From assembly GCA_963743445.1 (NCBI GenBank), contig CAVUPL010000003.1, positions 375,984-439,983 on the forward strand: DNA of 64,000 nt, in the 5' to 3' direction. Origin of the DNA: Vulcanimicrobiota bacterium. Lineage in GTDB: Bacteria > Vulcanimicrobiota > Vulcanimicrobiia > Vulcanimicrobiales > Vulcanimicrobiaceae. Position numbers and translations under genes: made by a program. Shown in pieces: positions 836 through 19,288 of the stretch. Below the pieces are notes generated by a model that did no database searches, had not been told where the DNA came from, and was given only the letters and a program-made list of their open reading frames with translations. Positions within the stretch are counted from its first letter, which is position 1; the number at the start of each line of letters is the position of its first letter.

Positions 836-1350
836 TGCGCGAGCGCGATCCGATCGGCGCGTGGCTGCGCGATACCCGTGCCCAGCGCCGTGTCGGCAGC
901 GCTCCATGTGCGTGCGGCGAATCGCGGCCGTTTGCGTTGATTACGGGCCGGTCGCCGCCGCTGTGCTATCGCTGCGAGCGCCTTGCGCACGGCCGCGAGC
1001 CGTACGAGCTCAACCACGTCTTCGGCAAGCGCAACAGCGCGCTGACGATCCGCTATCCGATCAACGATCACCGGGCGGTGCTTAGCGTGGCGCAATACCG
1101 CTGGCCACCCGGTGCCCTGGAGAATCCTAACGGGAGCGTCCTGCTCGCAAGCATCGCAGAGTCGCACGGGCTGTACGATAATACGGAGCACATGCTTGCC
1201 GAGCACAAAGCAAACGGCGCGCGGCTGCTCCACGTCGAGGAGTTGCTCGTCGCTGTCTATGGGCCGGACTGGCTTCCAGGGCTTGAAGCTGCGGCGAAGC
1301 GAGCTTCCGGCAAGCCCGCGACGAAGCGTAAGCCAGCGCATGACAAGTGA
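835..1350 (+). CDS. Zn-ribbon protein with possible HNH-like nuclease motif
   Basis: 171-aa ORF whose start overlaps the upstream stop. It has CxC...CxxC cysteines (CACG..CYRC) followed by ELNHVFGKRN...NDHR, which resembles an H-N-H core. The functional call is tentative. Confidence 0.45.
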   Translation: MRERDPIGAWLRDTRAQRRVGSAPCACGESRPFALITGRSPPLCYRCERLAHGREPYELNHVFGKRNSALTIRYPINDHRAVLSVAQYRWPPGALENPNGSVLLASIAESHGLYDNTEHMLAEHKANGARLLHVEELLVAVYGPDWLPGLEAAAKRASGKPATKRKPAHDK

Positions 1351-2615
1351 CCTGCCGATCGCAGTCCGCGTCTATCCCGATCTACCGTCGTCGCAGTCGG
1401 ATCGCAAGACCATGCCGCAGATCGACGGCATGCTCGTCTTCGACTGCGAGACGCGCACCGATAAAGCGCAGGCGCTGACCTTCGGCAGCTACAGGTTCCT
1501 CGTGGAAGGCCGCTGCCTCGAAGAGGGTCTGTTCTACGGTGACGATCTGCTGCCACGCGAGCGAGCCATCTTGGACCGGTACGTCGCGACCCATGCGGCC
1601 GACACCGATCCGCGCGGCATCCCGGAGCGCAGCATCCCGAGTAATCCAAAACTTATGCTGTTATCGGCAGCGGAGTTTCGCAGGCTTCTCTTCCGCGTGG
1701 CGTACAAAGGTCGCGGGCTGCTCGTTGCGTTCAACTTTCCTTTCGATATCTCGCGCCTCGCACTTGATTACCAACCTTCGCAGGGCCGGTTCCTGGGCGG
1801 GTTCAGCTTCGTACTCTTTCAGTACCGAGACCCCAACGGCATGCTGCGTCCCAGCGCGTACCGGCCAGCGATCACGGTCAAGCACATGGATGGTAAACGC
1901 TCCTTCAAGCGCTTCACTGCCACGATCGATCGCGATAAGGAAGACAAAATACCCGAAGGTGCCGCGACCCCCAAGCCGGACGATCGCTACATTTTCCGCG
2001 GGCACATGCTCGATGCGAAAACCCTGGCCTTCGCGCTGACCGATCAGGGCATGCGTCTCGAACGGGCCTGCGAGCTCTTCGGTGTCGAACACGGCAAGCA
2101 GAAGGTCAAGCGGCATGGGATCGTTACGCCAAGATACATCGACTACAACCGGCGCGATGTGCTCGCAACCTGCGAGCTGACCGAGAAGCTGCTCGCGGAA
2201 TACGCGCTCCACCTGATCCCCCTCCAGGCGACGAAAGCCTACTCGGCGGCCTCGATCGGCAAAGCCTACCTGGAGGCGATGGGGATCACGCCTCTGCTCG
2301 CACGCATGCCGGATTTTCCAAAGCGGTATCTCGGATATGCTGAATCAGCCTTCTTCGGCGGACGTGCGAGCGCGCACGCGCGCAAGGTTCCAGTGCCGGT
2401 CGTCTACACAGATTTCCTCAGTCAATATTCGACGGTGAACGTGCTGATGGGACTGTGGAACTTCGTCACTGCGAGCGACATAACGGTCGTGGAAGATGCT
2501 CGCGAGGAGCTCGCAGCAATGCTGCGAGCCGTGACGCCTGAATGGTTGCTCGATCAGGGCAACTGGAAGCGCCTTGCAGGCTTCGCTCGCATCATCCCGG
2601 ATGGCGACGCGCTGC
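1340..2615 (+). pseudogene. family-B DNA polymerase, N-terminal fragment (3'-5' exonuclease domain plus motif A), cut by IS110-family insertion
   Basis: Exo I LVFDCETRTD, Exo II VAFNFPFDISRL, Exo III YNRRDVLATCEL, motif A VVYTDFLSQYSTV (Dx2SLYPS-like). Protein-like reading ends at ..DGDALP, where the IS sequence begins. ATG 1340 overlaps the upstream gene end; ATG 1412 is an alternative start. Confidence 0.8.
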
Positions 2616-2874
2616 CGCTGCGAGCTTCCATGAGAAGGCCGTTTTTGTCAAGGCCGACGTGGCGGCCAAATACATCGCTCCACCAATTCATCTCGCCCCG
2701 CTTCCATCCGCACTCGTTGTGAGCCATTGTTGGCTCGGTGCACGTTGGGGTTCCTCGTGGAGTTTGGCGCTGCTATCTAAGCGACGATCTCAGAGGATCC
2801 TAGCTCGCATCGCAGTCACCAAAACGCGGCGAATTGTCGGAGCGAATGTCGCGCGAAGTTTTCCTCGCGAGTAT
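2616..2874 (-). ncRNA. candidate bridge/seek RNA region of IS copy A (3' non-coding flank)
   Basis: A 259-nt non-coding segment lies downstream of the transposase stop, versus 94 nt upstream. This architecture is typical of IS1111-type members, which encode their guide RNA 3' of the recombinase. No fold was computed. Confidence 0.25.
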
Positions 2875-3990
2875 TTAGGCGACGCCAACCGCTCCTAACG
2901 GGACGCCGGCGCGCACGGGCTCGTAGACCTCTGCAGTGACCCACAACCGGTGAAGCAGTACCGCGAGCTTACGAGCCACCGCGACAACGGCTCGTTTCTT
3001 GGCATTCTTGCCGCCGCGCTCGGCCAAATGTATCCCAAAGCGCCGTAAGTCGGAGTCTGGTCCAAAGGGTCCTAAGATGTAGTGAGCGCTTCCGATCAGC
3101 AGGCGGCGCAGATACCCGTTTCCAGCTTTGGTGATCGGCAGTTGCGGGGAATGTTCACCCGAGTCATCTTGGCGCGGAACCAACCCGAGGTAGGCTCCGA
3201 CGTCGCGGCTACGTGCAAAGCGAGTCTTGTCGGAAAGTGTGAGCACGAAGGCCAGCGAGGTTAACGCCCCAACGCCGGCTACCTGCCGCAGAACCTCCGT
3301 TTCCGGATAGCATTGGTGAGCTAGCACCTCGAGCTGCTTGTCATAGCAGCGGATCTGCTCCGTTAGCGAATCGATTGCAGCTGCTAGCGGTGCGAGCATC
3401 GTTTCGAACCGCTCGGGAGTTTGCTCGCGAATGCGCTGAGCAAAGCATGGAGTAGTGCACCGCGGTAAGCGACCACCCAGGGACTTGGTCAATCCGCGCG
3501 CGGCATTGATAAGCTTTGTACGCGCGCCAACGAGGACGTCACGCGCACGGATCAGAGAGATGTCGGCTTGCATCTGCTCGCTACGATGCTGGACTGGTGC
3601 GAGGAGCTGCGGATCGAAGCGAACTATGCGAGCGAGGATCTCTGCATCGGCGCGATCGTTCTTTCGATCGCTTTGGTGAATCTTGCGCAACTCGCGGGCA
3701 TTGGCAACGACAACCTCGTGGCCGCAGCCGGCGATGAGTCGGCTGACCCATCCCGAGTGCGTTCCCGTCTCAAGTGCGACCCGGGCCGGCGCACGCGAGT
3801 TGAAGTATTCCTGTAACGTCGCCCGAGTCGTGCGCAGGCGAGTTTGGCTGGCGATTGCGCCCTCCTCGTCAAGCACACAGGCTTCGCTATACCGGTCGCC
3901 CAGGTCGATTCCGATCGCAAGCGGGTTCGCCTTTGCGCGACGTTCCTTTCGGGACTTGCTTTGAATCTGGACTTTGCTATGCTTGGTCAT
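2875..3990 (-). CDS. IS110-family DEDD transposase/recombinase
   Basis: N-terminus has IGIDLGDRYSEACVLD. C-terminus has LRQVAGVGALTSLAFVLTLSDKTRFARSRDVGAYLGLVPRQDDSGEHS (Transposase_20-like). ATG is preceded by AAAGGAG. Identical to 9548-10663. Confidence 0.9.
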   Translation of the reverse strand: MTKHSKVQIQSKSRKERRAKANPLAIGIDLGDRYSEACVLDEEGAIASQTRLRTTRATLQEYFNSRAPARVALETGTHSGWVSRLIAGCGHEVVVANARELRKIHQSDRKNDRADAEILARIVRFDPQLLAPVQHRSEQMQADISLIRARDVLVGARTKLINAARGLTKSLGGRLPRCTTPCFAQRIREQTPERFETMLAPLAAAIDSLTEQIRCYDKQLEVLAHQCYPETEVLRQVAGVGALTSLAFVLTLSDKTRFARSRDVGAYLGLVPRQDDSGEHSPQLPITKAGNGYLRRLLIGSAHYILGPFGPDSDLRRFGIHLAERGGKNAKKRAVVAVARKLAVLLHRLWVTAEVYEPVRAGVPLGAVGVA

Positions 3991-4084
3991 GAGGGTCGGT
4001 CTCCTTTCATTGCACCTCGAGTGCGTCACGGATACTTCGTTTCAGAAGTCCGTCTTGGGGACCGGCCTTCTCATCTCATCTAAG

Positions 4085-5842
4085 TACGGTGGCAACGATT
4101 GGCAGATCGGCGTCAACTACGTCTATGCGAACAGCGACAATCCCAGCGATGCGCTGTGGTATTCATGGCCCGATCTTGTGGCGTCCGTGCTCTTAACTGG
4201 AAAGCAGCCGCGCATTATCGAGGCGTTCGAGATCGAGCCTATCGGTAAGGCTGAGGGCCTGAAGCCGATCACGTTCCGCGGACAAGTGCCGATCGATCCG
4301 CGCTCGCAGGACTTCTTCAAAGTGGTGATCGAGGAACGCAATCGCCTCGCAGCTCGCACCGATCTGGACAAGAGCGAGCGCGATCGGCTCAAGCGATCGC
4401 TCAAGACCTTCGGCAGCGCGACGAGCTACGGCATCTTCGCACAGATGGATCGCAAAGAGAGTGAAAAGCCGGTGAAGCTGACATGCTACGGCATCGATCC
4501 CGAGTCGTACGAGTGTACCGTAAAGCACCCGGAGTCACCCGGTGAGTTTTGCTTCCCACCGCTGGCCTCGCTCATTACGGGCGGTAGCCATCTGCTGCTC
4601 GCGCTGCTGGAGCGCCTGGTCACCGATCGCGGCGGCACATACGCGATGGAAGACACCGACTCCATGGCAATAGTGGCCTCGGAGCGCGGCCGCCTCGTTC
4701 CGTGCCCTGGCGGCGCATATAAGACCGAAGACCGGCGCGAGGCGATCCGCGCGCTGACCTGGGCGCAGGTGGACGAAATCGTTGCACTTCTGGATCGCCT
4801 CAATCCCTACGATCGCGAGGCGGTCAAAGAGCCGATCCTCAAGATCGAGAGCGACAACCGCGATCCCAAAACCAAACAGCAGCGGCAGCTCTGGTGCCTG
4901 GCGATTTCCGCCAAGCGTTACGCGCTCTTCCTCCGCGATCGCAACGGCGAGCCGGTACTGCTGCGTAAGGGTGACAATAACGGTGAGGACGGCGAAGATC
5001 GATGGTCGCAGCACGGCCTCGGGCATCTACTCAATCCCAGCGATCCGGAGGGCGACGATCGTAGCTGGATCGCGCAGGCGTGGCTTGCGATCGTACGCCG
5101 ATCGCTGAGTCTCGCAGCGGCGCCGCTTCCGATCGCCGATCGCGTGGCCGTAGGGCAGATCACCGTGAGCAGCCCCGAGGTGCTCAAGCCGCTAGAAGCG
5201 TTCAATGCTAGTAAACGGTACGCGCAACAGATCAAACCATTCAACTTCATCCTTAGCGCCCACGTAGCGTCGTTCGGTCATCCAAGCGGCGCCGATCCCG
5301 AACACTTCCATCTGATCGCACCGTATGAGAGCGACCCGCGCAGATGGGAGAGGCTGCCCTGGATCGATGAGTATTCGGAGAAGCCGTATCGGATCAGCGC
5401 ATCGCTGCCCAGCGCCACGCGATCGATCGCGGCCGTCAAGAGCTACGGCGACGTGCTCGAAGAGTACGAGTTCCACGAAGAGGCCAAGTGTGCCGATGCC
5501 ACTGGCGAGCCGTGCGATCGGCAGAGCGTCGGTCTGCTGGGTCGGCGCCGCGTCCGGATCAAACAGCTGCATTTCATCGGTAAGGAATCAAACAAGCTCG
5601 AAGAGGTCGAGGACCAAGCCTTGTTCGACCCGATGGATGTTTATACGGAGTATGCCGACCCGCGCCGCGACGATTGGCTCAACAAGTGGCTGCCGATGCT
5701 GCGATCGACCCCAGTTCCAAAGCTGCTTGCTCTAGGCGTTTCGCGCGCGACAATCTATGCGGCGCGGAGCGGACGCAAGCCGTACGGTAGCACAAAGCTG
5801 AAACTCATCCGTGCCCTTCGAATAGTTCATGGGTTGAGTTAG
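4085..5842 (+). pseudogene. family-B DNA polymerase, C-terminal fragment (motifs B, C, KxY, thumb)
   Basis: Resumes as YGGNDWQIGVNYVYAN directly after the IS. Motif B KTFGSATSYGIFAQ, motif C YAMEDTDSMAIV, KxY AISAKRYALF. Removing about 1,467 bp of IS restores the frame (..DGDALP-YGGNDW..). Confidence 0.8.
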
Positions 5843-5849
5843 TGACGTT

Positions 5850-7058
5850 ATGTTTGAACATTGGTTTCAGTTAGCGCCAGATATGGCGCCCCAAATCGGA
5901 GTGCCCCCAGCTGCCATGATAGCCGCGCACGACATTGTATGCTCGGTCATGGGGTCGGCGTGGATAGAGCGCCAAGCGGAACGTCTGGACGTTCGCGCTC
6001 GTTCCATTGCCGATGTTCATCCACTGTTTCGCTCCCTCACTGGAGGCACGGAGTTAAACATCATCGAGGTTTGCGAATTGGCGGCGTATTGCGTCGCCTT
6101 TAAGACCGATGCAAGGCTTGGCGAAGCGATAATCTCATTGCGTGATCCCAATAAGTATGCAGCGACAGTCACTGAGTTAAGCATGGCTTGGAAGTTTAAG
6201 CTCGCTGGAGCATCAGTTAGGCTCGCGCCGCCAACGGAACGTGGCACAGCTGACTTTGCCGCGGAGGTCGCGGGCAAAGAACATGTGGTCGAAGTTAGTG
6301 GATTTCCAAACGACCCATTTCGGAGCGATTCGATGATCTTTGTGGGCGCAATGCAGACTGCGCTAAAGTCGGCGCTAAAGAGGCACGCTTTTGCTCGCCA
6401 CGTCGTCGTTGAAATAGAAGTTGAAGGTAGCGATGTTGAAAACCTACAAGCAGAAGCGCACCGCGCTATCGCAAGCGCGACCCAAGAATTCGCGAAGTTG
6501 GGTACGCAGAGCGCAGTGGCGCACGAATATCCGTTCGGTTCAGTTAAGGTTAGACTTGTCGTTCCCGGCGAAAAGCCGGATACTTTGTATTGGACCTGTG
6601 CCGTTTGTCTTACCTTAGTGCCACCGCCTGATACCGGATTGCTTACGATGGAGCACTTAACGCAAGGGCAAGAAACTCATTGGCTCTACGTTCGATTACC
6701 AGAACGGCCTGCGTACCCTTACGAGCGGATCAAACAAAAGCTAAAGACAGAGGCACGACAGTTACGCGGTTGTACGGACGCCGTCGTGATGCTAGACTCA
6801 GGAGGCCTTCGGATGGGAATACCGTCTGACGGTGATTCCCACCTTAGCCGCATCGCCAAAGATTTCGAGCGAGAACACGCAAGCACAACTGCTTTCGGTG
6901 TTATTGCACAACCGGTCAAGAGGGATGGGACTAGCGGCCTCGCGGGTGCCTATTTTGCGCTCGCACCGGGAGCTTTGAGCGCGGCTTTTTGGCGAGATAT
7001 GCTCAAGGCCGACCAGCAATCGACAGTGCTGTGGGAGTTGGACGAGCTTCGAAAATGA
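5850..7058 (+). CDS. hypothetical protein (402 aa), last large gene of the polymerase block
   Basis: Long ORF starting 8 nt after the polymerase stop. Visibly lower GC than its surroundings. No recognisable motif. Confidence 0.6.
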   Translation: MFEHWFQLAPDMAPQIGVPPAAMIAAHDIVCSVMGSAWIERQAERLDVRARSIADVHPLFRSLTGGTELNIIEVCELAAYCVAFKTDARLGEAIISLRDPNKYAATVTELSMAWKFKLAGASVRLAPPTERGTADFAAEVAGKEHVVEVSGFPNDPFRSDSMIFVGAMQTALKSALKRHAFARHVVVEIEVEGSDVENLQAEAHRAIASATQEFAKLGTQSAVAHEYPFGSVKVRLVVPGEKPDTLYWTCAVCLTLVPPPDTGLLTMEHLTQGQETHWLYVRLPERPAYPYERIKQKLKTEARQLRGCTDAVVMLDSGGLRMGIPSDGDSHLSRIAKDFEREHASTTAFGVIAQPVKRDGTSGLAGAYFALAPGALSAAFWRDMLKADQQSTVLWELDELRK

Positions 7059-7140
7059 AGCGAAGTGCAGTGGCAGCGAAGGGGGGCCGCCTATCGGCGA
7101 CGTGGCTGCGAAGCGGGCCGAGGCGGCGACTAAGGCCCTC

Positions 7141-7190
7141 GGAGCCCGGCTGCTGCGCCGGAACGGAACAGAGCAGCACCGAACACCAAA
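7141..7190 (+). promoter_or_regulatory. copy of the conserved leader (CCGG.TGCTGCGC.GGAC.GAG..GC.CCGAAC)
   Basis: AGCCCGGCTGCTGCGCCGGAACGGAACAGAGCAGCACCGAAC aligns with the reverse complement of 17619-17667 and with the other leader copies. Confidence 0.3.
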
Positions 7191-7223
7191 ATAAGATTTC
7201 GAGCTGAGCGGGTTACGGAGACT

Positions 7224-7472
7224 TTGGACCTCGATCGTCTACTTCAGCGCAGCCGCCGCGAATTGCTGAGCAGCGTCCCGGAGATCAAGGAGCTACTAGA
7301 CTCCTTCGCCGTAACGCGTGATAGCCCTAAGTGCGTTGACGACGTGCGCAAGGCCGAGATTATCAACATGCTGGTAGCGAAGTTTTCATCAATCGGCCTA
7401 AGAGAGGACGACGAGCCCAACGAGCTTGGGCTGGCGATCGAGTCGCTTATCGACATCTTTAACAGGGACTAA
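7224..7472 (+). CDS. small acidic hypothetical protein (82 aa, TTG start)
   Basis: ORF with protein-like composition lying downstream of a leader copy. The non-ATG start lowers confidence. Confidence 0.35.
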   Translation: MDLDRLLQRSRRELLSSVPEIKELLDSFAVTRDSPKCVDDVRKAEIINMLVAKFSSIGLREDDEPNELGLAIESLIDIFNRD

Positions 7473-7481
7473 GAGCGTGCA

Positions 7482-7564
7482 CTGGCTGCTGCACATGGGA
7501 CTGAGCGCCGCCGCGCCGAACAAAGCCAGGCGCTGAGCGTTCATGCGGCACGGGAGCGAGGACT
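7482..7564 (+). promoter_or_regulatory. conserved leader upstream of orphan signal-peptide cassette
   Basis: CTGGCTGCTGCACATGGGACTGAGCGCCGCCGCGCCGAAC...GTTCATGCGGCACGGGAGCGAGGACTATG is homologous to the leaders at 25444-25490, 37041-37086 and 40242-40309. Confidence 0.4.
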
Positions 7565-7693
7565 ATGAGGATTCGAAGCTTGGGCTACGCGCTAAGCAGC
7601 TGCGTGGCTGCGGCAATGCTCGCTGGCTGCGGCGGATCGCAGCCGCCGCTCGGCGCGCCGGGCGCGGGATTAGCGGGGCGAGGTGATGCGTAG
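7565..7693 (+). other. orphan lipoprotein signal-peptide cassette (42 codons)
   Basis: MRIRSLGYALSSCVAAAMLAGCGGSQPPLGAPGAGLAGRGDA*. It contains the conserved core TGCGGCGGATCGCAGCCGCC at 7628-7647 and stops 20 codons after the lipobox Cys. Confidence 0.6.
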
Positions 7694-8162
7694 CCGTAAG
7701 GCGGCGGCGGTGATGTTCATCATCCTGGTAATTTGCTCGCAGCGCACGACGTTTGCGACAAATAAATACCCCGTGCCGTTCTCGGATAAGCCCGATTGGC
7801 ATGGCTTCATCGTGAATCCTCCAGCGAGCTTCGCCGCGGTGCTTCATGCTCGCGTAATGGCGCATGCGCTTGTCCTTGTAACGTTGAATTCGAGTGGGAC
7901 AATCGATCAACATGAGGCGGCGACGCTGGCCTATCAGAATTTGTTCAGCAATACTTCGCGTCTTCCCGCTGGTGCCTTATATGTTGTCGTGATGGTATAT
8001 GGACCGCCAAACTTCATCGGCGCACATCCAGAATTCGCTTACGTCTTTAGGCGCGATTCAACCCCGAATGGCTGGGAACCACGGCTAGTATCAGAGTCCG
8101 AGGTGAAAGCCATTCAATGCGCTCTTGGAAACAAGATCTTGGTTGGACACGGAGCCTGTTAG
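7683..8162 (+). CDS. secreted hypothetical protein (159 aa)
   Basis: N-terminal signal-like MMRSRKAAAVMFIILVICSQRTTFA. Lower-GC ORF that overlaps the orphan cassette's stop. Confidence 0.5.
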   Translation: MMRSRKAAAVMFIILVICSQRTTFATNKYPVPFSDKPDWHGFIVNPPASFAAVLHARVMAHALVLVTLNSSGTIDQHEAATLAYQNLFSNTSRLPAGALYVVVMVYGPPNFIGAHPEFAYVFRRDSTPNGWEPRLVSESEVKAIQCALGNKILVGHGAC

Positions 8163-9363
8163 AGCATTGCGTCACGCGCCTACCATCTGCGCCGCTGCTG
8201 CATTGTTCGCGGGATGCGGCGGATCGCAGCCGCCGATCGGCGCTCCGGGCGCGATGCTGCAAAGCAACGCGATAGCGACGTCGTCCTATCAGGTTCTGCA
8301 CAACTTCGCTGGCGACCCGGACGGCGCGAACCCCTCCGCGAGCTTGATCGACGTGAACGGTACGTTCTACGGTACCACAGCTGAGGGCGGCACATACGGC
8401 CATGGCGGAACGGTCTTCAGCATCAATACGACCGGCAAAGAACGCGTGCTCTATAGCTTTGGCGGTGGCCACGATGGCAACGGCCCCGTCGCGAGCCTGA
8501 TCGACGTGAACGGCACGCTGTACGGCACAACGGAGTACGGGGGACTATGCGGCTGTGGGACCGTTTATAGCGTGAGCACTTCCGGCAGCGAAAAAGTGCT
8601 GTATGCTTTCAAGGGCGGCACCGACGGAGCCAATCCGACCGCCGGATTACTCAACATGAAGGGTACGCTCTACGGCACAACCCGTTCGGGAGGTGGCGGC
8701 AAGTGCAGCACATCCGGCGCTAGCGGTTGCGGAACCGTTTACAGCATTAGCACGACCGGCAAGGAGAAAGTGCTATACCACTTTGCTGGCCCCGACGGCG
8801 AATTCCCAACTGCGAGCTTGATCGAACTTAAGGGCAGGCTCTACGGCACTACATATTGGGGCGGCGGCGGTTTCGGCTATGGAACGGTCTTCAGCATCAC
8901 TACGTCTGGCAGGGAGCACGTGATTCACAGCTTCCAGGGCGACCCTGACGGCGCACAGCCCGACGCATCCCTGATTAAGGTTAAGGGCATGCTATACGGA
9001 ACGACGGAATATGGTGGCGCACAGTCCTACCAAGCAGGCCTAGGAACGGTTTTTAGCATCACCACGCGTGGCACGGAGCACGTGATTCACATCTTCCGCT
9101 ACGGCGATGGCGAATTTCCGACTGCGAGCTTGATCAACGTTAAGGGCACGCTCTACGGCACTACATATGGGGGCGGCACGCATTACGGCGGAACGGTCTT
9201 CAGCATCACTACGTCCGGCACGGAACACGTGATTCACAGCTTCGACGGCGGCTTAGCACACGGCCCCCAGGCGGGCGTGATCGACGTTGAAGGCACGCTC
9301 TACGGCACCACGTTTTGGGCCGGCACGTATAACGACGGAACGGTCTTCGCGTTGAGATTGTAA
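8125..9363 (+). CDS. GloVer-type (Gloeo_Verruco-like) tandem-repeat lipoprotein
   Basis: ICAAAALFAGCGGSQPPIGAPGAMLQS is followed by about 8 repeats of the ..ASLIDVNGTLYGTT..GG..GTVFSI...G.E.V(L/I)(Y/H)SF.. type. Ends GTVFALRL*. There is no ATG; TTG at 8125 or 8143 are candidate starts. Confidence 0.8.
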   Translation: METRSWLDTEPVRALRHAPTICAAAALFAGCGGSQPPIGAPGAMLQSNAIATSSYQVLHNFAGDPDGANPSASLIDVNGTFYGTTAEGGTYGHGGTVFSINTTGKERVLYSFGGGHDGNGPVASLIDVNGTLYGTTEYGGLCGCGTVYSVSTSGSEKVLYAFKGGTDGANPTAGLLNMKGTLYGTTRSGGGGKCSTSGASGCGTVYSISTTGKEKVLYHFAGPDGEFPTASLIELKGRLYGTTYWGGGGFGYGTVFSITTSGREHVIHSFQGDPDGAQPDASLIKVKGMLYGTTEYGGAQSYQAGLGTVFSITTRGTEHVIHIFRYGDGEFPTASLINVKGTLYGTTYGGGTHYGGTVFSITTSGTEHVIHSFDGGLAHGPQAGVIDVEGTLYGTTFWAGTYNDGTVFALRL

Positions 9364-9366
9364 TGC

Positions 9367-9453
9367 CCGCGCCCGGCGTTCGCGATCGCGAGGCCGTTGT
9401 TCGCTTAGCAGCATTGCTCGCATTGCAGCTACGAGCGCCTCGCATTACGGAAG
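9367..9453. repeat. REP-like intergenic unit (left part, split by IS copy B)
   Basis: CCGCGCCCGGCGTTCGCGATCGCGAGGCC...GCTCGCATTGCAGCT.CGAGCGCCTCGCA is homologous to the reverse complement of 13345-13449. It contains the 12-nt palindrome TCGCGATCGCGA at 9380-9391. Confidence 0.7.
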
Positions 9454-9547
9454 CTTAGATGAGATGAGAAGGCCGGTCCCCAAGACGGACTTCTGAAACG
9501 AAGTATCCGTGACGCACTCGAGGTGCAATGAAAGGAGACCGACCCTC

Positions 9548-10663
9548 ATGACCAAGCATAGCAAAGTCCAGATTCAAAGCAAGTCCCGAAAGGAACGTCG
9601 CGCAAAGGCGAACCCGCTTGCGATCGGAATCGACCTGGGCGACCGGTATAGCGAAGCCTGTGTGCTTGACGAGGAGGGCGCAATCGCCAGCCAAACTCGC
9701 CTGCGCACGACTCGGGCGACGTTACAGGAATACTTCAACTCGCGTGCGCCGGCCCGGGTCGCACTTGAGACGGGAACGCACTCGGGATGGGTCAGCCGAC
9801 TCATCGCCGGCTGCGGCCACGAGGTTGTCGTTGCCAATGCCCGCGAGTTGCGCAAGATTCACCAAAGCGATCGAAAGAACGATCGCGCCGATGCAGAGAT
9901 CCTCGCTCGCATAGTTCGCTTCGATCCGCAGCTCCTCGCACCAGTCCAGCATCGTAGCGAGCAGATGCAAGCCGACATCTCTCTGATCCGTGCGCGTGAC
10001 GTCCTCGTTGGCGCGCGTACAAAGCTTATCAATGCCGCGCGCGGATTGACCAAGTCCCTGGGTGGTCGCTTACCGCGGTGCACTACTCCATGCTTTGCTC
10101 AGCGCATTCGCGAGCAAACTCCCGAGCGGTTCGAAACGATGCTCGCACCGCTAGCAGCTGCAATCGATTCGCTAACGGAGCAGATCCGCTGCTATGACAA
10201 GCAGCTCGAGGTGCTAGCTCACCAATGCTATCCGGAAACGGAGGTTCTGCGGCAGGTAGCCGGCGTTGGGGCGTTAACCTCGCTGGCCTTCGTGCTCACA
10301 CTTTCCGACAAGACTCGCTTTGCACGTAGCCGCGACGTCGGAGCCTACCTCGGGTTGGTTCCGCGCCAAGATGACTCGGGTGAACATTCCCCGCAACTGC
10401 CGATCACCAAAGCTGGAAACGGGTATCTGCGCCGCCTGCTGATCGGAAGCGCTCACTACATCTTAGGACCCTTTGGACCAGACTCCGACTTACGGCGCTT
10501 TGGGATACATTTGGCCGAGCGCGGCGGCAAGAATGCCAAGAAACGAGCCGTTGTCGCGGTGGCTCGTAAGCTCGCGGTACTGCTTCACCGGTTGTGGGTC
10601 ACTGCAGAGGTCTACGAGCCCGTGCGCGCCGGCGTCCCGTTAGGAGCGGTTGGCGTCGCCTAA
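9548..10663 (+). CDS. IS110-family DEDD transposase/recombinase
   Basis: Same protein as 2875-3990. ATG 9548 has an AAAGGAG RBS. The upstream GTG at 9509 given by the ORF track is less likely. Confidence 0.9.
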   Translation: MTKHSKVQIQSKSRKERRAKANPLAIGIDLGDRYSEACVLDEEGAIASQTRLRTTRATLQEYFNSRAPARVALETGTHSGWVSRLIAGCGHEVVVANARELRKIHQSDRKNDRADAEILARIVRFDPQLLAPVQHRSEQMQADISLIRARDVLVGARTKLINAARGLTKSLGGRLPRCTTPCFAQRIREQTPERFETMLAPLAAAIDSLTEQIRCYDKQLEVLAHQCYPETEVLRQVAGVGALTSLAFVLTLSDKTRFARSRDVGAYLGLVPRQDDSGEHSPQLPITKAGNGYLRRLLIGSAHYILGPFGPDSDLRRFGIHLAERGGKNAKKRAVVAVARKLAVLLHRLWVTAEVYEPVRAGVPLGAVGVA

Positions 10664-10922
10664 ATACTCGCGAGGAAAACTTCGCGCGACATTCGCTCCA
10701 ACAATTCGCCGCGTTTTGGTGACTGCGATGCGAGCTAGGATCCTCTGAGATCGTCGCTTAGATAGCAGCGCCAAACTCCACGAGGAACCCCAACGTGCAC
10801 CGAGCCAACAATGGCTCACAACGAGTGCGGATGGAAGCGGGGCGAGATGAATTGGTGGAGCGATGTATTTGGCCGCCACGTCGGCCTTGACAAAAACGGC
10901 CTTCTCATGGAAGCTCGCAGCG
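10664..10922 (+). ncRNA. candidate bridge/seek RNA region of IS copy B
   Basis: Long 3' non-coding flank with local hairpins (e.g. CGCGAGGAAAACTTCGCG at its start). No ORF with sensible composition. Called by analogy to IS1111-type elements. Confidence 0.25.
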
Positions 10923-10970
10923 TGCCTCGCAGCTTAGATCGCAACGCTTAACGCGTTGCAGCTTGGATCG
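10923..10970. repeat. REP-like intergenic unit (right part, after IS copy B)
   Basis: TGCCTCGCAGCTTAGATCGCAACGCTTAACGCGTTGCAGC aligns with the reverse complement of 13301-13345. Confidence 0.65.
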
Positions 10971-11356
10971 CGGCGGCTTGGATTCGTGTGGCCGAGCGGC
11001 TCAGCGGCCGGGTGTCTCGTCTTGGCTTCGCCAACCCCTATCCCGCGCCGCAGCATAACGGGCATAGGGGAAGGGCCTCAATTCCGGCCACCCTGCTCGG
11101 CGCTCGTGGATCCAGGCTTGCAGCGAAAAACCCAGTAAAATCAGGCTTTTTTGCGCATTCATCGATCGACGCGCCTAACGCGCGGCCTCGTGCAAACTTT
11201 GCAACGCCGTTTGCAAAAACCGCGACGCATCAAAAACGCTATATAGCATAAGGCTTTTTCGGCATGCTCCGGGATGCATGGTCGCGGCCGGTGTATCGGA
11301 TCATAGAGGGTGCTTGGACGGGGTGGCCGGACGCCGATCGTCGTAAGAGTAGGGCG

Positions 11357-12045: not shown

Positions 12046-12087
12046 CTTATCCCCTGTAATCAAAAGCGGCCGTTAGCGTCGGCCCCG

Positions 12088-12933
12088 TCATGCAGCCATT
12101 GATTTCTGTGGAAGTTGGGTAGTTTCGTAGGTTGCGAGGAACTCCTCGGGCGTGCGGTAACCGAGCGCGCTGTGCGAGTGCGTCGTGTTGTAGCCATGCA
12201 GCCACCCATGCGCCTTGAGTTGTCCTTCGGCTAGCGAGTGAAACCACTGCGCGTTGAGGAACTCGCAGCGAACGCGGTTGTTAAACGACTCGATAAACGC
12301 GTTCTGCGTCGGCTTACCGGGCTGGATGAAGAGCAGCTCGACGTCGTGCTCTTCCGACCAAATCTGCATGAGCTTCGACGTGAACTCTGTGCCGTTGTCG
12401 ATCCGCAGGTACTTCGGGTAACCATAGATCGCCGCAACACTGTCCAGCACCGCGATCACCGAGCGGCTCGGGAACGAGAACGACATCTCCAGGGCGAGGC
12501 CGCTGCGGCTGAACTCATCCTCCATTGAGAGCGTCCGGAACGCCCGGCCGCCGAAAAGCCGGTCGTGCATGAAGTCGAGCGTCCAGCCTTCGAACGGCTT
12601 GGTTGCGCGACGCAGCGGCTTGCCTCGCACGATCTTGGCTCGGCCACGCCGGCGCCGTCGACCGATTTGCAGGTTCGCCAAGCGGTAAATCCGGCGAAAT
12701 CGCTTGTAGTTCATGAACTCGTCTCGTTCGGGCATCGCGTCGCGAGCATAGTCATCGTAGAGTCGTCGACAGCCGTGTTCGGCGTGTGCTTGCGCGACTT
12801 CAGTGAGTCGGGTAGCCCAGCGCGCGTCCTCCACCGCTTTCGCACTGGGTTTCTCGCGCGGTGATCGACGTCGCGCACGCACGATCGCGCAGGCTTCGCG
12901 TTGACTTACGCCGAGCGTTTGCAGCGCCTTCAC
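12088..12933 (-). CDS. IS3-family transposase OrfB (DDE integrase core)
   Basis: ..WTLDFMHD....RIDNGTEFTS...IQPGKPTQNAFIESFNNRVRCEFLN. Lies in the -1 frame relative to OrfA and is probably expressed as an OrfAB fusion. Confidence 0.9.
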   Translation of the reverse strand: MKALQTLGVSQREACAIVRARRRSPREKPSAKAVEDARWATRLTEVAQAHAEHGCRRLYDDYARDAMPERDEFMNYKRFRRIYRLANLQIGRRRRRGRAKIVRGKPLRRATKPFEGWTLDFMHDRLFGGRAFRTLSMEDEFSRSGLALEMSFSFPSRSVIAVLDSVAAIYGYPKYLRIDNGTEFTSKLMQIWSEEHDVELLFIQPGKPTQNAFIESFNNRVRCEFLNAQWFHSLAEGQLKAHGWLHGYNTTHSHSALGYRTPEEFLATYETTQLPQKSMAA

Positions 12934-13223
12934 GACTTCGGCTCGCCGGGAAGGCTCCAGGAGTTTTTTCGCATGAGCTCTTCCATGGCATCGATCTTGA
13001 CCGTTTGGCGAGCGATGATGCGCTGCATCTGCACATTCTCGGCCTCGAGCTGCTTGAGCCGGGCGAGATCGCTAGCGTTCATGCCGGCGTACTTCGACCG
13101 CCAAAGTCGGATCGTGTTAGCGTGAATGCCGTGGCGGCGCGCAAGTTCTTCAGCCGGCGCTCCGGCATCGAACTCGCGTAAGATCGCAACGATCTGCACC
13201 TCGGAGAAGCGACTCTTGCGCAT
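12930..13223 (-). CDS. IS3-family transposase OrfA (HTH)
   Basis: MRKSRFSEVQIVAILREFDAGAPAEELARRHGIHANTIRLWRSKYAGMNASDLARLKQLEAEN is a typical IS3/IS407 OrfA. Confidence 0.9.
   Translation of the reverse strand: MRKSRFSEVQIVAILREFDAGAPAEELARRHGIHANTIRLWRSKYAGMNASDLARLKQLEAENVQMQRIIARQTVKIDAMEELMRKNSWSLPGEPKS
12963..12969 (-). promoter_or_regulatory. -1 programmed ribosomal frameshift heptamer A_AAA_AAC (IS3 copy 1)
   Basis: The heptamer sits in the OrfA zero frame (CGA AAA AAC). A -1 shift reads KKLLEPSRRAEVVKALQTL.. into OrfB. Confidence 0.6.
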
Positions 13224-13300
13224 GGGTGGATCTCCTTCGTAGCCCGTTTGGGCGGAAATCCACAGTTATCCCTGGCTCCCGATTCTGGGCCGACGCTAAG

Positions 13301-13449
13301 CCGCAACGCGTTAAGCGCCGCGATCTAAGCTGCTAGACCTGCGAGGCTACTGCGAGCACCGCTGCCGCGCTGCGAGGCGCTCGCAACTGCAATGCGAGCA
13401 AGGCCGCTAGGCAACAGCACGGCCTCGCGATCGCGAACGCCGGGCGCGG
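13301..13449. repeat. intact REP-like intergenic unit
   Basis: Contains CTTAACGCGTTGCGGC, AGCTTAGATCGC and CTCGCAG reiterations, GCTCGCAACTGCAATGCGAGC, and GGCCTCGCGATCGCGAACGCCGGGCGCGG (13421-13449; palindrome at 13425-13436). Confidence 0.7.
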
Positions 13450-13580: not shown

Positions 13581-14600
13581 TTAATGCGGAGCGCGACTAA
13601 CGGCTATACCCTCCGGTGACGAAATCCCTCCGCTCGTCCCTTTAACGGGATAGCCGCCCGCCGGATAAATCCAGTAGGCAACGTCGTTACCGGGCAGGTC
13701 CGCTCCGATGAGCCTCTTCCCTCTCGGGTTTACCTTGCCGTTTCCAAACAACTTTGGGACCGCAAACTCAAGCACCCAGTCCGAGCCACTGAGTGTTGTT
13801 GAACCTTCGAGCCGTCCGCTTGAGCCTGACATCGAGAACTGGTGGATCGCGGTTGGACCTGAACCAAATCCCAGCGCAAGATACTCCCCGTCCCACGCGA
13901 GGCCGCCGGCAAATGGCGGAGTATCGTCCAGGGTCACGCTCGTGAGCGTACTGCCGCCTTTTGGAAGCTCGACGAGTTGGAAGGGACTACTTGGACCAAC
14001 GCCGTCGACGTAGAGGTTGCCCTCATTGTCATAGGCGGGATAGTAGAATAATGAGACGCTAGCATCTGCATACTGCGTCGGAGTACCCGATGCGTCTCGG
14101 TAAACCAAGACGCTGCTCGGCGCGCTACCCGGACTCGTATTGCTGGCAGCGAGATCGCCGGTCGTCGGATCGACGGCGCAAGCCGTGGGACTTCCGTATG
14201 GGTCGCTCAGAGCATTGATCGGGCTCGTGCCGCCGTGCTCGTACTCGAAGATCTGCGATGTTCGAGAGTTTGTGACGAACACATCGCCGTTTCTATCGGC
14301 ACACAAGCCGCGCGGCGCCTCAAAACCGGTCAACGTTCCTACCTGATGTTGGTATCCCCACGTGTAGACGGTCACCGTATTCGTACCGCCATTCGAGACG
14401 TAGAGCAAATCGTCACTCTTCGCTTCCGGCAGCATCCACGACCCGCCGTGCGAAGCGTGCGTTGCGATCGCGCTGCTTTGCTGCATAGCGCCCGGCGCGC
14501 CGGTCGGCGGCTGCGATCCGCCGCATCCTGCAAGCAATGCCGCGGCCGTGCAAATGGTAAGCGCGTACCTGGCGAGACGCGAACGCTTCATCTGCTTCAC
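13581..14600 (-). CDS. lipoprotein, beta-propeller-like paralog family A
   Basis: MKQMKRSRLARYALTICTAAALLAGCGGSQPPTGAPGAMQQSSAIATHASHGGSWMLPEAKSDDLLYVS.. Core 20-mer at 14506-14525. Confidence 0.8.
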   Translation of the reverse strand: MKQMKRSRLARYALTICTAAALLAGCGGSQPPTGAPGAMQQSSAIATHASHGGSWMLPEAKSDDLLYVSNGGTNTVTVYTWGYQHQVGTLTGFEAPRGLCADRNGDVFVTNSRTSQIFEYEHGGTSPINALSDPYGSPTACAVDPTTGDLAASNTSPGSAPSSVLVYRDASGTPTQYADASVSLFYYPAYDNEGNLYVDGVGPSSPFQLVELPKGGSTLTSVTLDDTPPFAGGLAWDGEYLALGFGSGPTAIHQFSMSGSSGRLEGSTTLSGSDWVLEFAVPKLFGNGKVNPRGKRLIGADLPGNDVAYWIYPAGGYPVKGTSGGISSPEGIAVSRAPH

Positions 14601-17667: not shown

Positions 17668-17875
17668 TGGGGATCGTAGCCCAGCTTATTAGACAGCACC
17701 GGCCGTCCCGCAACGTGCGGCCGACGTTGCCGAGCGCTACCTTGAAGAATAGAATCTGCTTTGAGGTCACTGACCTCGCGGGACTTAACGCGTTGCGGCT
17801 TAGCGTCGGCCCAGAATCGGGAGCCAGGGATAACTGTGGATTTCCGCCCAAACGGGCTACGAAGGAGATCCACCC

Positions 17876-18169
17876 ATGCGCAAGAGTCGCTTCTCCGAGG
17901 TGCAGATCGTTGCGATCTTACGCGAGTTCGATGCCGGAGCGCCGGCTGAAGAACTTGCGCGCCGCCACGGCATTCACGCTAACACGATCCGACTTTGGCG
18001 GTCGAAGTACGCCGGCATGAACGCTAGCGATCTCGCCCGGCTCAAGCAGCTCGAGGCCGAGAATGTGCAGATGCAGCGCATCATCGCTCGCCAAACGGTC
18101 AAGATCGATGCCATGGAAGAGCTCATGCGAAAAAACTCCTGGAGCCTTCCCGGCGAGCCGAAGTCGTGA
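17876..18169 (+). CDS. IS3-family transposase OrfA
   Basis: Identical to 12930-13223. Confidence 0.9.
   Translation: MRKSRFSEVQIVAILREFDAGAPAEELARRHGIHANTIRLWRSKYAGMNASDLARLKQLEAENVQMQRIIARQTVKIDAMEELMRKNSWSLPGEPKS
18130..18136 (+). promoter_or_regulatory. -1 programmed ribosomal frameshift heptamer A_AAA_AAC (IS3 copy 2)
   Basis: CGA AAA AAC lies in the OrfA frame, and OrfB is in the -1 frame. Confidence 0.6.
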
Positions 18170-19011
18170 AGGCGCTGCAAACGCTCGGCGTAAGTCAACG
18201 CGAAGCCTGCGCGATCGTGCGTGCGCGACGTCGATCACCGCGCGAGAAACCCAGTGCGAAAGCGGTGGAGGACGCGCGCTGGGCTACCCGACTCACTGAA
18301 GTCGCGCAAGCACACGCCGAACACGGCTGTCGACGACTCTACGATGACTATGCTCGCGACGCGATGCCCGAACGAGACGAGTTCATGAACTACAAGCGAT
18401 TTCGCCGGATTTACCGCTTGGCGAACCTGCAAATCGGTCGACGGCGCCGGCGTGGCCGAGCCAAGATCGTGCGAGGCAAGCCGCTGCGTCGCGCAACCAA
18501 GCCGTTCGAAGGCTGGACGCTCGACTTCATGCACGACCGGCTTTTCGGCGGCCGGGCGTTCCGGACGCTCTCAATGGAGGATGAGTTCAGCCGCAGCGGC
18601 CTCGCCCTGGAGATGTCGTTCTCGTTCCCGAGCCGCTCGGTGATCGCGGTGCTGGACAGTGTTGCGGCGATCTATGGTTACCCGAAGTACCTGCGGATCG
18701 ACAACGGCACAGAGTTCACGTCGAAGCTCATGCAGATTTGGTCGGAAGAGCACGACGTCGAGCTGCTCTTCATCCAGCCCGGTAAGCCGACGCAGAACGC
18801 GTTTATCGAGTCGTTTAACAACCGCGTTCGCTGCGAGTTCCTCAACGCGCAGTGGTTTCACTCGCTAGCCGAAGGACAACTCAAGGCGCATGGGTGGCTG
18901 CATGGCTACAACACGACGCACTCGCACAGCGCGCTCGGTTACCGCACGCCCGAGGAGTTCCTCGCAACCTACGAAACTACCCAACTTCCACAGAAATCAA
19001 TGGCTGCATGA
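18166..19011 (+). CDS. IS3-family transposase OrfB
   Basis: Identical to 12088-12933. Confidence 0.9.
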   Translation: MKALQTLGVSQREACAIVRARRRSPREKPSAKAVEDARWATRLTEVAQAHAEHGCRRLYDDYARDAMPERDEFMNYKRFRRIYRLANLQIGRRRRRGRAKIVRGKPLRRATKPFEGWTLDFMHDRLFGGRAFRTLSMEDEFSRSGLALEMSFSFPSRSVIAVLDSVAAIYGYPKYLRIDNGTEFTSKLMQIWSEEHDVELLFIQPGKPTQNAFIESFNNRVRCEFLNAQWFHSLAEGQLKAHGWLHGYNTTHSHSALGYRTPEEFLATYETTQLPQKSMAA

Positions 19012-19288
19012 CGGGCCGACGCTATTACTTATCTCCTACTGATCTGGCAGGCTGGTTCGCAAAACTAACGGTCGAAACAGCGAAAAAGCGTCGTTGCCGC
19101 GCGAATAGTCGGCTTCCGGCTCTCCCCACTGTAGCCTGCCTCGACTGTCCACGCCGACCCAAGGGGTTTCAAAACAAGGCTCCCCCAGTCGGCAATGCCG
19201 CGTGGTATAGCGCTGCGATCAAACCCCTCAGCGCTACGCGATTCGGAGCCGCTCTTAATCGAGGTGAGTGAGACAGTCGCCGCCCTGA

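Follow-up and report, generated by a model that had tools for sequence, protein, structure and literature searches.

An IS1111-group insertion sequence in a Vulcanimicrobiota bacterium: corrected boundaries give its copies one target, matched by the loop of a candidate seek/bridge RNA

How an RNA-guided element could place identical copies of itself in two unrelated targets was the question raised by a 64,000-nt stretch of DNA from a Vulcanimicrobiota bacterium (GenBank assembly GCA_963743445.1, contig CAVUPL010000003.1, positions 375,984 to 439,983 of the forward strand), referred to below as the window. A first-pass annotation, made from the sequence alone, had described two copies of an IS1111-like element of the IS110 family, suspected a guide RNA in the region 3' of the transposase gene, and judged the two insertion sites dissimilar. 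Our analysis indicated that the puzzle lay in where the ends of the element had been drawn. We put at about 0.87 the probability that the locus carries a 1455-bp IS1111-group insertion sequence (IS), whose 3' region would encode a structured seek/bridge RNA with a two-guide target loop.

The repeat itself was as annotated: a repeat search of the window recovered an inverted repeat of 1469 nt (2616-4084 and 9454-10922), with 94 nt on the 5' side of the gene and 259 nt on the 3' side. The analysed assembly (G000; 2.84 Mb, completeness 69.6% by marker count) held three 1469-bp copies in total when searched by blastn, namely copy A (window 2616-4084, minus strand), copy B (window 9454-10922, plus strand) and copy C, which lies outside the window, approximately 7 kb upstream of it (C3:367543-369011, minus strand), and is 100% identical to copy B. 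Copies A and B had also been called 100% identical; direct comparison revealed one mismatch at repeat position 1247 (the complement, G, at window 2838 versus A at window 10700), and window 2838 was the sole base that set copy A apart from B and C. For comparison with site A, we took the contigs of four soil-metagenome runs, all from a single study; every contig carried the B/C allele at window 2838. Because contigs that bridge a copy A junction were among those with the other allele, the single mismatch may be an assembly-level difference. Contigs bridged both copy A junctions in three of the four runs, and loose contig ends displayed the B/C flank, to which run X3 added GCGGCGG/CTTAG and GCAGCG/TGCTCGCAGTTTAGCC (slashes mark junctions throughout). 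Neither an empty-site joint nor a circle junction at site A was found in the contigs of the four runs.

The gene interrupted at site A and its orthologue revealed that the repeat is wider than the element. Excision of 1469 bp leaves this gene with one extra base and out of frame. An uninterrupted orthologue with 88-90% identity, present in a relative of the same genus (L032), reads GTTGCCACCGTA-CTTGGCTCGCAGCG-GCAATACG in element orientation (CCGTA-CTTGGCTCGCAGCG-GCA around the junction), with 14 nt where the repeat tips fall; the occupied site in G000 reads GTTGCCACCGTA-(CTTAG ATGAG…CATGGA AGCTCGCAGCG)-GCAGCGCG. At the position of copy B, unoccupied paralogous units resembling repetitive extragenic palindromic (REP) sequences read …GGCAG CTTAGCTCGCGG TAGCCTCGCA…, with TAGCC after CTTAGCTCGCGG, and copy B sits in its own unit as …GGAAG CTTAG(element)AGCTCGCAGCG TGCCTCGCA…. 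Because the uninterrupted orthologue carries them, 14 nt of the repeat tips (CTT and AG on the left, AG and CTCGCAGCG on the right, with AG on both sides) are target DNA. The element is thus made up of a 1453-bp body and one AG core, 1455 bp in all, with 89 nt upstream and 248 nt downstream of the gene; the original boundaries took in 14 bases too many. The 12-nt subterminal inverted repeats, ATGAGAAGGCCG and CGGCCTTCTCAT, were present as first described, lying 5 nt (left) and 3 nt (right) from the corrected tips of the body rather than 10 and 14 nt from the tips.

With these boundaries, sites A and B share one target, the 14-mer CTT-AG-CTCGCAGCG present at both, and their supposed dissimilarity reduces to a boundary error. 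The sequences at the element's ends that had been seen echoed in the flanks were target DNA together with sub-repeats (CTCGCAG and GCTTAG) of the REP-like unit. The specified part of the target appears to be about 12 nt long, GCTT-AG-CTCGCA. Site A lies inside a gene, and sites B and C lie inside the REP-like unit. In another genome, an element with a 92%-identical transposase and the same guides (L046) was also found in a REP-like unit, at GGAAG CTT AG/AG CTCGCAGCA. The target was rare: CTTAGCTCGCA occurred in the assembly as only two free exact copies in addition to the three occupied ones, with ca. 1.2 expected by chance from base composition. The two unoccupied exact targets were located at C3:1602085 on the plus strand (GCTTAGCTCGCAGCA) and C3:640515 on the minus strand (TCTTAGCTCGCAGTG).

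Assignment of the element to the IS110 family was upheld by its 371-aa transposase, which contained both the N-terminal DEDD/RuvC-like domain and the C-terminal Transposase_20 domain. Pfam profiles DEDD_Tnp_IS110 (PF01548) and Transposase_20 (PF02371) matched at 71.1 and 58.3 bits (cut-offs 29 and 21.3), and NCBIfam NF033542, "IS110 family RNA-guided transposase", matched at 221.9 bits against a cut-off of 140. Among PDB sequences, the ISCro4 and IS621 transposases matched over the C-terminal domain only, at E of about 1e-7. The IS1111 group is described as having subterminal inverted repeats of 7-17 bp (PMC11208160), a longer non-coding region downstream of the gene, a GL-P----S(t)G motif and transposases of 330-350 aa (PMC11187229). 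The 12-bp inverted repeat fell within this range, the downstream non-coding region was the longer one (248 versus 89 nt), and YLGLVPRQDDSG, the form of the motif in the C-terminal domain, was unchanged in all four aligned relatives. The transposase exceeded the descriptive length range; its relatives run from 338 to 378 aa. These described features, rather than a tree, place the element in the IS1111 group, in agreement with the earlier assignment.

The 3' regions of relatives with 58-92% transposase identity were aligned, and a conserved scaffold with two hypervariable stretches was obtained. RNAalifold and pair counts over 12 distinct relatives gave a consensus fold in which a closing helix encloses three branches. 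Across its 36 pairs, 97.7% of the cells in the 12 sequences were paired, versus 26-45% when the partners were slid. Compensatory changes were observed at four pairs, all of them within the first branch, in the stems on either side of the guide loop; the two hypervariable stretches formed the two sides of this internal loop. The structured guide-RNA candidate proposed for the 3' region was therefore found, as a conserved fold with target-matching segments in a loop. Bridge RNAs have been predicted in 93% of IS1111 elements, which carry them in the right end (PMC11208160). A covariance model of the hairpin (R1) matched only the three element copies in G000, with no orphan hairpin copy above E = 0.15 beyond them, and matched in 14 of the 91 genomes of the genus.

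Within the internal loop, UGCGAGCU on the 5' side pairs with AG-CTCGCA on the top strand, and GCUUAG on the 3' side has the same sense as the target, so it pairs with the bottom strand. The left guide is followed by an invariant AU, identical to the first 2 nt of the element's left end. In bridge RNA, the left guide pairs with the bottom strand and the right guide with the top strand, both including the core (PMC11208160), and in IS1111 seekRNA the segment matching the top strand comes 5' of the one matching the bottom strand, with an overlap in the target, an order reversed relative to IS110 (PMC11187229). Because its geometry matches these published models, the first branch was read as the target-binding loop. 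The first-pass annotation had expected loops complementary to both the donor ends and the flanks; the target loop does match the flanks that the sites share, and the ends and flanks that had been used for the search were the wrong ones. It had also named the lack of any flank sequence that pairs with a loop as evidence against a guide RNA, and the shared target was found to match segments of the hairpin loop.

The same loop could instead bind the donor, that is, the circle junction of a 1469-bp element (…AGCTCGCAGCG/CTTAGAT…), with the target guides elsewhere. Nucleotides 92-100 of the non-coding region (CGCUUAGAU) do coincide with positions -2 to +7 of the junction that the 1469-bp repeat would form, and nucleotides 66-73 are the reverse complement of its right tip. 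This arrangement, which predicts a circle junction reading …CTCGCAGCG-CTTAGATG…, is already contradicted, as both the orthologous gene and paralogous REP-like units contain the 14 tip nucleotides as an unbroken stretch, and cutting out 1469 bp destroys the reading frame. Moreover, in relatives the loop positions track sequences that vary between insertions of one element (TATCCCG, TATCCCC and TATCAGC at the copies in genome G034), which is how flanks behave and element ends do not. We regard a donor-binding role for this loop as scarcely credible.

The target-binding role of the loop was further indicated by covariation of the guides with the targets of relatives. The set comprised 25 insertions: sites A and B of G000, the 22 of 35 loci with a parsable right end, and L028; seven rows (L002-L006, L016 and L024) were left out as duplicates of the same places. 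These insertions formed 10 guide classes, and each guide was scored by best-offset 9-mer identity to its own flank versus the flanks of other classes. The right flank was defined as the 9 nt after CATGGA, compared with the reverse complement of the 5' loop side, and the left flank as the 9 nt ending with the core before ATG(A/G)(G/A), compared with the 3' loop side. Right guides matched their own flanks at a mean of 7.80/9 (at least 8 in 20 of 25) and those of other classes at 4.33/9 (at least 8 in 2 of 490). For left guides, the own-flank mean was 7.43/9 (at least 8 in 14 of 23) and the cross-class mean 4.55/9 (at least 8 in 0 of 456).

Individual classes displayed the same correspondence. 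A single A/T change distinguished L043 (UAAGCCGCU with AGCGGCTTA) from L045 (UAUGCCGCU with AGCGGCATA) in guide and target alike. Right guides and flanks agreed in AGCTGCGC for L047 and L048, in AGTATCCCG with one G-U pair for L049-L054, and in AGGGACCG for the eight copies L057-L064. Left guides and flanks agreed in CATTGCAG at 9/9 for L047, L048 and L067, and in AGTCGAG for L057-L064. A scan of the genus, in which loci L097 and L105 were not cleanly parsed, added the classes CUCGCGCU with AGCGCGA and CGCCUAG with CGCCTAG. Natural reprogramming of the guides was thus seen across the 10 guide classes.

These data also bear on the proposal that the recombinase protein itself reads the sequence or structure of the target, such as a REP hairpin, while the 3' region serves in regulation or mRNA stability and the loop matches are a by-product. 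Many of the targets lie in palindromic REP-like units, the abstract of a 2026 preprint describes a sequence-plus-structure logic for ISPpu10, and expression of the guide RNA is here presumed. However, at least 10 different targets are used by transposases sharing 58-92% identity, and both sides of the loop mirror each of these targets; site A is coding sequence and not a REP unit; and in IS1111 members the RNA was essential and reprogrammable in experiments (PMC11187229). Readout by the protein appears very unlikely to us, and a target-binding seek/bridge RNA is preferred.

The donor side of this RNA was less distinct. Where two branches meet, a segment AUGGAAG(C) is identical to the right-end tip followed by the core, and it could be a donor-binding segment, a weak candidate that would fit the multiloop in which the donor-binding nucleotides of IS1111 elements often lie (PMC11208160). 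The element ends were nearly invariant among relatives, and the candidate showed one covariation event, in L055, with GGAAA in both places. The outward-facing TTGACA is a candidate -35 box of a promoter that would be completed at the circle junction, by analogy with the junction promoter described for the family; the -10 box that would form there (GAAGAT) is, by our reading, weak.

Three other pairings were tried and rejected. Nucleotides 100-108 of the non-coding region (UAGCAGCGC) match the site A flank ta/gcagcgc over 9 nt; they belong to the lower stem and are conserved in all relatives. An IS621-type handshake guide beside the right target guide was discarded, as the nucleotides after CU (AG, CG, GG or UG) are not complementary to the right-end tip GA. 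Extension of AUGGAAG into the right target was unconvincing, the next nucleotide matching in only five of eight lineages.

By analogy with known systems, the RNA would be made and bound by the recombinase, with chemistry as in IS621 and ISEc11. The element would excise as a circle joined …CATGGA-AG-ATGAG…, with a predicted junction of …CTCATGGA-AG-ATGAGATG…, and the recombinase-RNA complex would pair its loop with GCTT-AG-CTCGCA. The two guide pairings would share the AG core, the point at which the DEDD recombinase would exchange strands of circle and target, and strand exchange at AG would insert the element. For IS1111 seekRNA, the donor has been reported to require flanking by the target (PMC11187229).

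Several observations weigh against a guide-RNA element of this kind. At the core, the L032 orthologue has GG and not AG, and the sequence of site A before insertion is our reconstruction. Besides the core, the left guide has only 3-4 nt in this element, and site A matches five of the six GCUUAG positions. No segment complementary to the top strand AG-ATGAG, as a right donor guide would be, was present outside the right inverted repeat. A promoter scan returned no sigma-70-type site inside the element (0 sites), and of six sequencing runs checked for expression of the predicted RNA, none was an RNA run. An Rfam scan of window 9300-11100 at E up to 10 matched no family of bridge or seek RNAs and gave only a chance match to a small RNA. 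Copies within a guide class are related, which makes the 10 classes a fairer count of independent tests than the 25 rows, and some guides fitted poorly: L051/L016 at 5/9 (right), L070 at 6/9, and L055 at 7/9 with an AA core. At the core of site A (window 4080-4081), the codon on the gene strand is GCC in L032 and GCT in G000, both for alanine. A synonymous change before insertion may have created a perfect target there; alternatively, the core may have been copied from the donor.

Table 1. Features of the element and of the REP-like units (positions are those of the window unless a contig is given).
Feature	Position	Strand	Details
Copy B body, 1453 bp	9459..10911	+	ATGAG + left inverted repeat … right inverted repeat + GGA; from the site A orthologue and paralogous REP-like units
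Copy B left junction	9454..9458	+	target half CTT 9454-9456, core AG 9457-9458
Copy B right junction	10912..10922	+	core AG 10912-10913, target half CTCGCAGCG 10914-10922
Copy A body	2627..4079	-	AG cores 4080-4081 and 2625-2626; target halves CTT 4082-4084 and CTCGCAGCG 2616-2624
Left subterminal inverted repeat, 12 nt	9464..9475	+	ATGAGAAGGCCG; kept in relatives
Right subterminal inverted repeat, 12 nt	10897..10908	+	CGGCCTTCTCAT; kept in relatives
DEDD transposase/recombinase gene, 371 aa, IS110 family	9548..10663	+	ATG to stop; YLGLVPRQDDSG motif; profile matches
Candidate seek/bridge RNA core, 178 nt	10708..10885	+	closing helix GCCGCGU 10708-10714 with ACGUCGGC 10878-10885
Target-binding hairpin (predicted)	10717..10773	+	lower stem 10717-10726/10765-10773, upper stem 10739-10742/10749-10752, internal loop between
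Right target guide (predicted), 5' loop side	10729..10736	+	UGCGAGCU; reverse complement of AG-CTCGCA (core + right target)
Left target guide (predicted) with invariant AU	10756..10763	+	GCUUAG 10756-10761; equals G-CTT-AG (left target + core)
Candidate left donor guide (weak)	10831..10838	+	AUGGAAGC; multiloop junction; same sense as right-end tip ATGGA + core AG + C
Outward-facing TTGACA, candidate -35 box	10887..10892	+	invariant in 12 of 12 aligned relatives
REP-like unit around copy B	9366-9453 and 10923-11045		
REP-like unit	13298-13449	-	
REP-like unit	C3:353918-354055		
REP-like unit	C3:366055		
REP-like unit	C1:59976-60126		

The identity of the copies had been taken as a sign of recent activity, and the identical flanks of B and C fall short of three recent independent insertions. 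Because copies B and C share a 1680-bp block that is 100% identical, including 88 nt of left and 123 nt of right flank, they are not clearly independent. We lean towards a single insertion, copied afterwards along with the surrounding REP-like unit; segmental duplication, gene conversion or an assembly artefact could each account for this. Other REP-like units of the family are only 75-90% alike, and the B/C identity stops at the edge of the unit and at a hairpin that has its loop in opposite orientations at B and C. A site-specific element could, on the other hand, have struck two identical units separately, and the short-read contigs of the four metagenome runs fit either course of events. 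The hairpin where the right-flank identity ends reads CTATCCCG-loop-CGGG(C)ATAG (window about 11046-11080), and its 13-nt loop is reverse-complemented between the loci, which hints at an inversion or recombination breakpoint.

The REP-like unit is approximately 225 nt long, starts with a conserved CCCGCGCCCGGCGTTCGCGATCGCGAGGCCGT, and contains the sub-repeats CTCGCAG, GCTTAG and CATTGCAGCTGCGAG, with copies 75-90% alike. It carries target sites of several sibling elements, and no fewer than three guide classes are directed at distinct positions within this one unit family. The first class is that of the present element (GCTT-AG-CTCGCA). The second, CATTGC-AG-CTGCGC, belongs to the elements L047, L048 and L067, and had three exact free sites in G000, all in REP-like units, though G000 is without that element. 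For the third, the right half CGGCTTA was present in the unit, the full site was found only as a match with one mismatch, and the left half fitted partially.

A tentative picture, which we hold to be possible and rather doubtful as a whole, is that the REP-like unit serves as a multi-site landing pad shared or partitioned among guide-rewriting siblings, that sibling elements within one soil genus rewrote both guides at least 10 times, and that the IS1111 strand order is opposite to that of IS621. That unit and element form an identical block at B and C is a hint that an occupied pad may be duplicated as a whole. The invariant AU after the left guide may make a bottom-strand contact of the handshake type, a mirror image of IS621; if true, this would suggest an opposite order of strand exchange in the IS1111 group. 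The presence of several guide classes at different positions of one REP-like unit is a mildly new aspect.

The neighbourhood of the copies contained further features. The gene hit by copy A (window 1112-2615 plus 4085-5842, plus strand; about 1100 aa) had been annotated as PolB coding sequence. Copy A does lie inside a gene, and the PolB name found no Pfam, NCBIfam or PDB sequence match. The strings FDCET, NFPFD, YNRRD and EDTDS, read by eye, are what we take to be PolB-like motifs, and with its exonuclease-like and EDTDS strings the gene may encode a divergent member of the family B polymerases. Several copies of the gene occur in the genus (five matches in genome G006), and G000 has a 61% paralogue at C3:358440-359042. 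A second mobile element, probably IS3-like, was present as a 1250-bp inverted repeat pair (window 12074-13323 and 17776-19024, 99.8% identity); its open reading frame (ORF) at 12088-12930 on the minus strand has rve and rve_3 integrase-core domains, and the element abuts a REP-like unit. Window 8125-9363 (plus strand) holds a 412-aa ORF of six tandem units of ca. 150 nt (ca. 50 aa), 62-92% alike, with no Pfam match, and a neighbouring ORF at 13581-14597 on the minus strand encodes NHL repeats.

For the IS110 and IS1111 elements, the longest repeat common to the copies overshoots the element whenever the copies share a target, and hunting for guides with an overshooting repeat therefore fails or picks the wrong loop. 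The same boundary problem was raised for ISfinder entries in the seekRNA paper (PMC11187229). The corrected element provides a natural worked example of reprogramming of the IS1111 target loop in an uncultured soil phylum, and at least 10 matched guide/target pairs on one scaffold could be leveraged in choosing and testing new programmable recombinases. The known mechanism is left unchanged by this element.

Compared with IS621 (Durrant et al. 2024, PMC11208160; Hiraizumi et al. 2024, PMC11208158), the element is alike in its DEDD recombinase, in guides on opposite strands, in a 2-nt core that stands on both sides of the integrated element, and in an outward -35 box in the right end. It differs in that the RNA of IS621 is in the left end and here in the right, with the guide order in the loop reversed; the core is CT in IS621 and AG here; long 12-bp inverted repeats are present here; and the candidate donor-binding nucleotides here lie outside any simple second internal loop. 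The IS621 protein matched the transposase over the C-terminal domain only (E = 5.7e-7). ISPpu9 and ISPpu10 of Pseudomonas putida, according to abstracts on them, similarly insert in repetitive extragenic units and have an RNA gene downstream of the transposase gene; ISPpu9 differs by extra orphan copies of its RNA gene, whereas here the hairpin model found none beyond the three element copies. In the literature searched, no paper paired Eremiobacterota with IS110, which shows only that the words do not co-occur there.

A close likeness was also seen to ISEc11, ISPa11 and ISKpn4 (Siddiquee et al. 2024, PMC11187229), which were compared by description and not by sequence. They share subterminal inverted repeats, a long non-coding region 3' of the gene, the GL-P----SG motif, and a hairpin loop that has its top-strand match on the 5' side of its bottom-strand match, with an overlap at the insertion point. 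They differ in target, in transposase length (330-350 aa given for the family versus 371 aa here), and in host phylum, the relatives here being soil metagenome-assembled genomes of Candidatus Eremiobacteraeota, Vulcanimicrobiota or Candidatus Cybelea. A REP sequence is likewise the target of ISPa11, and the present element follows this known kind, that of the REP-targeting IS1111 elements.

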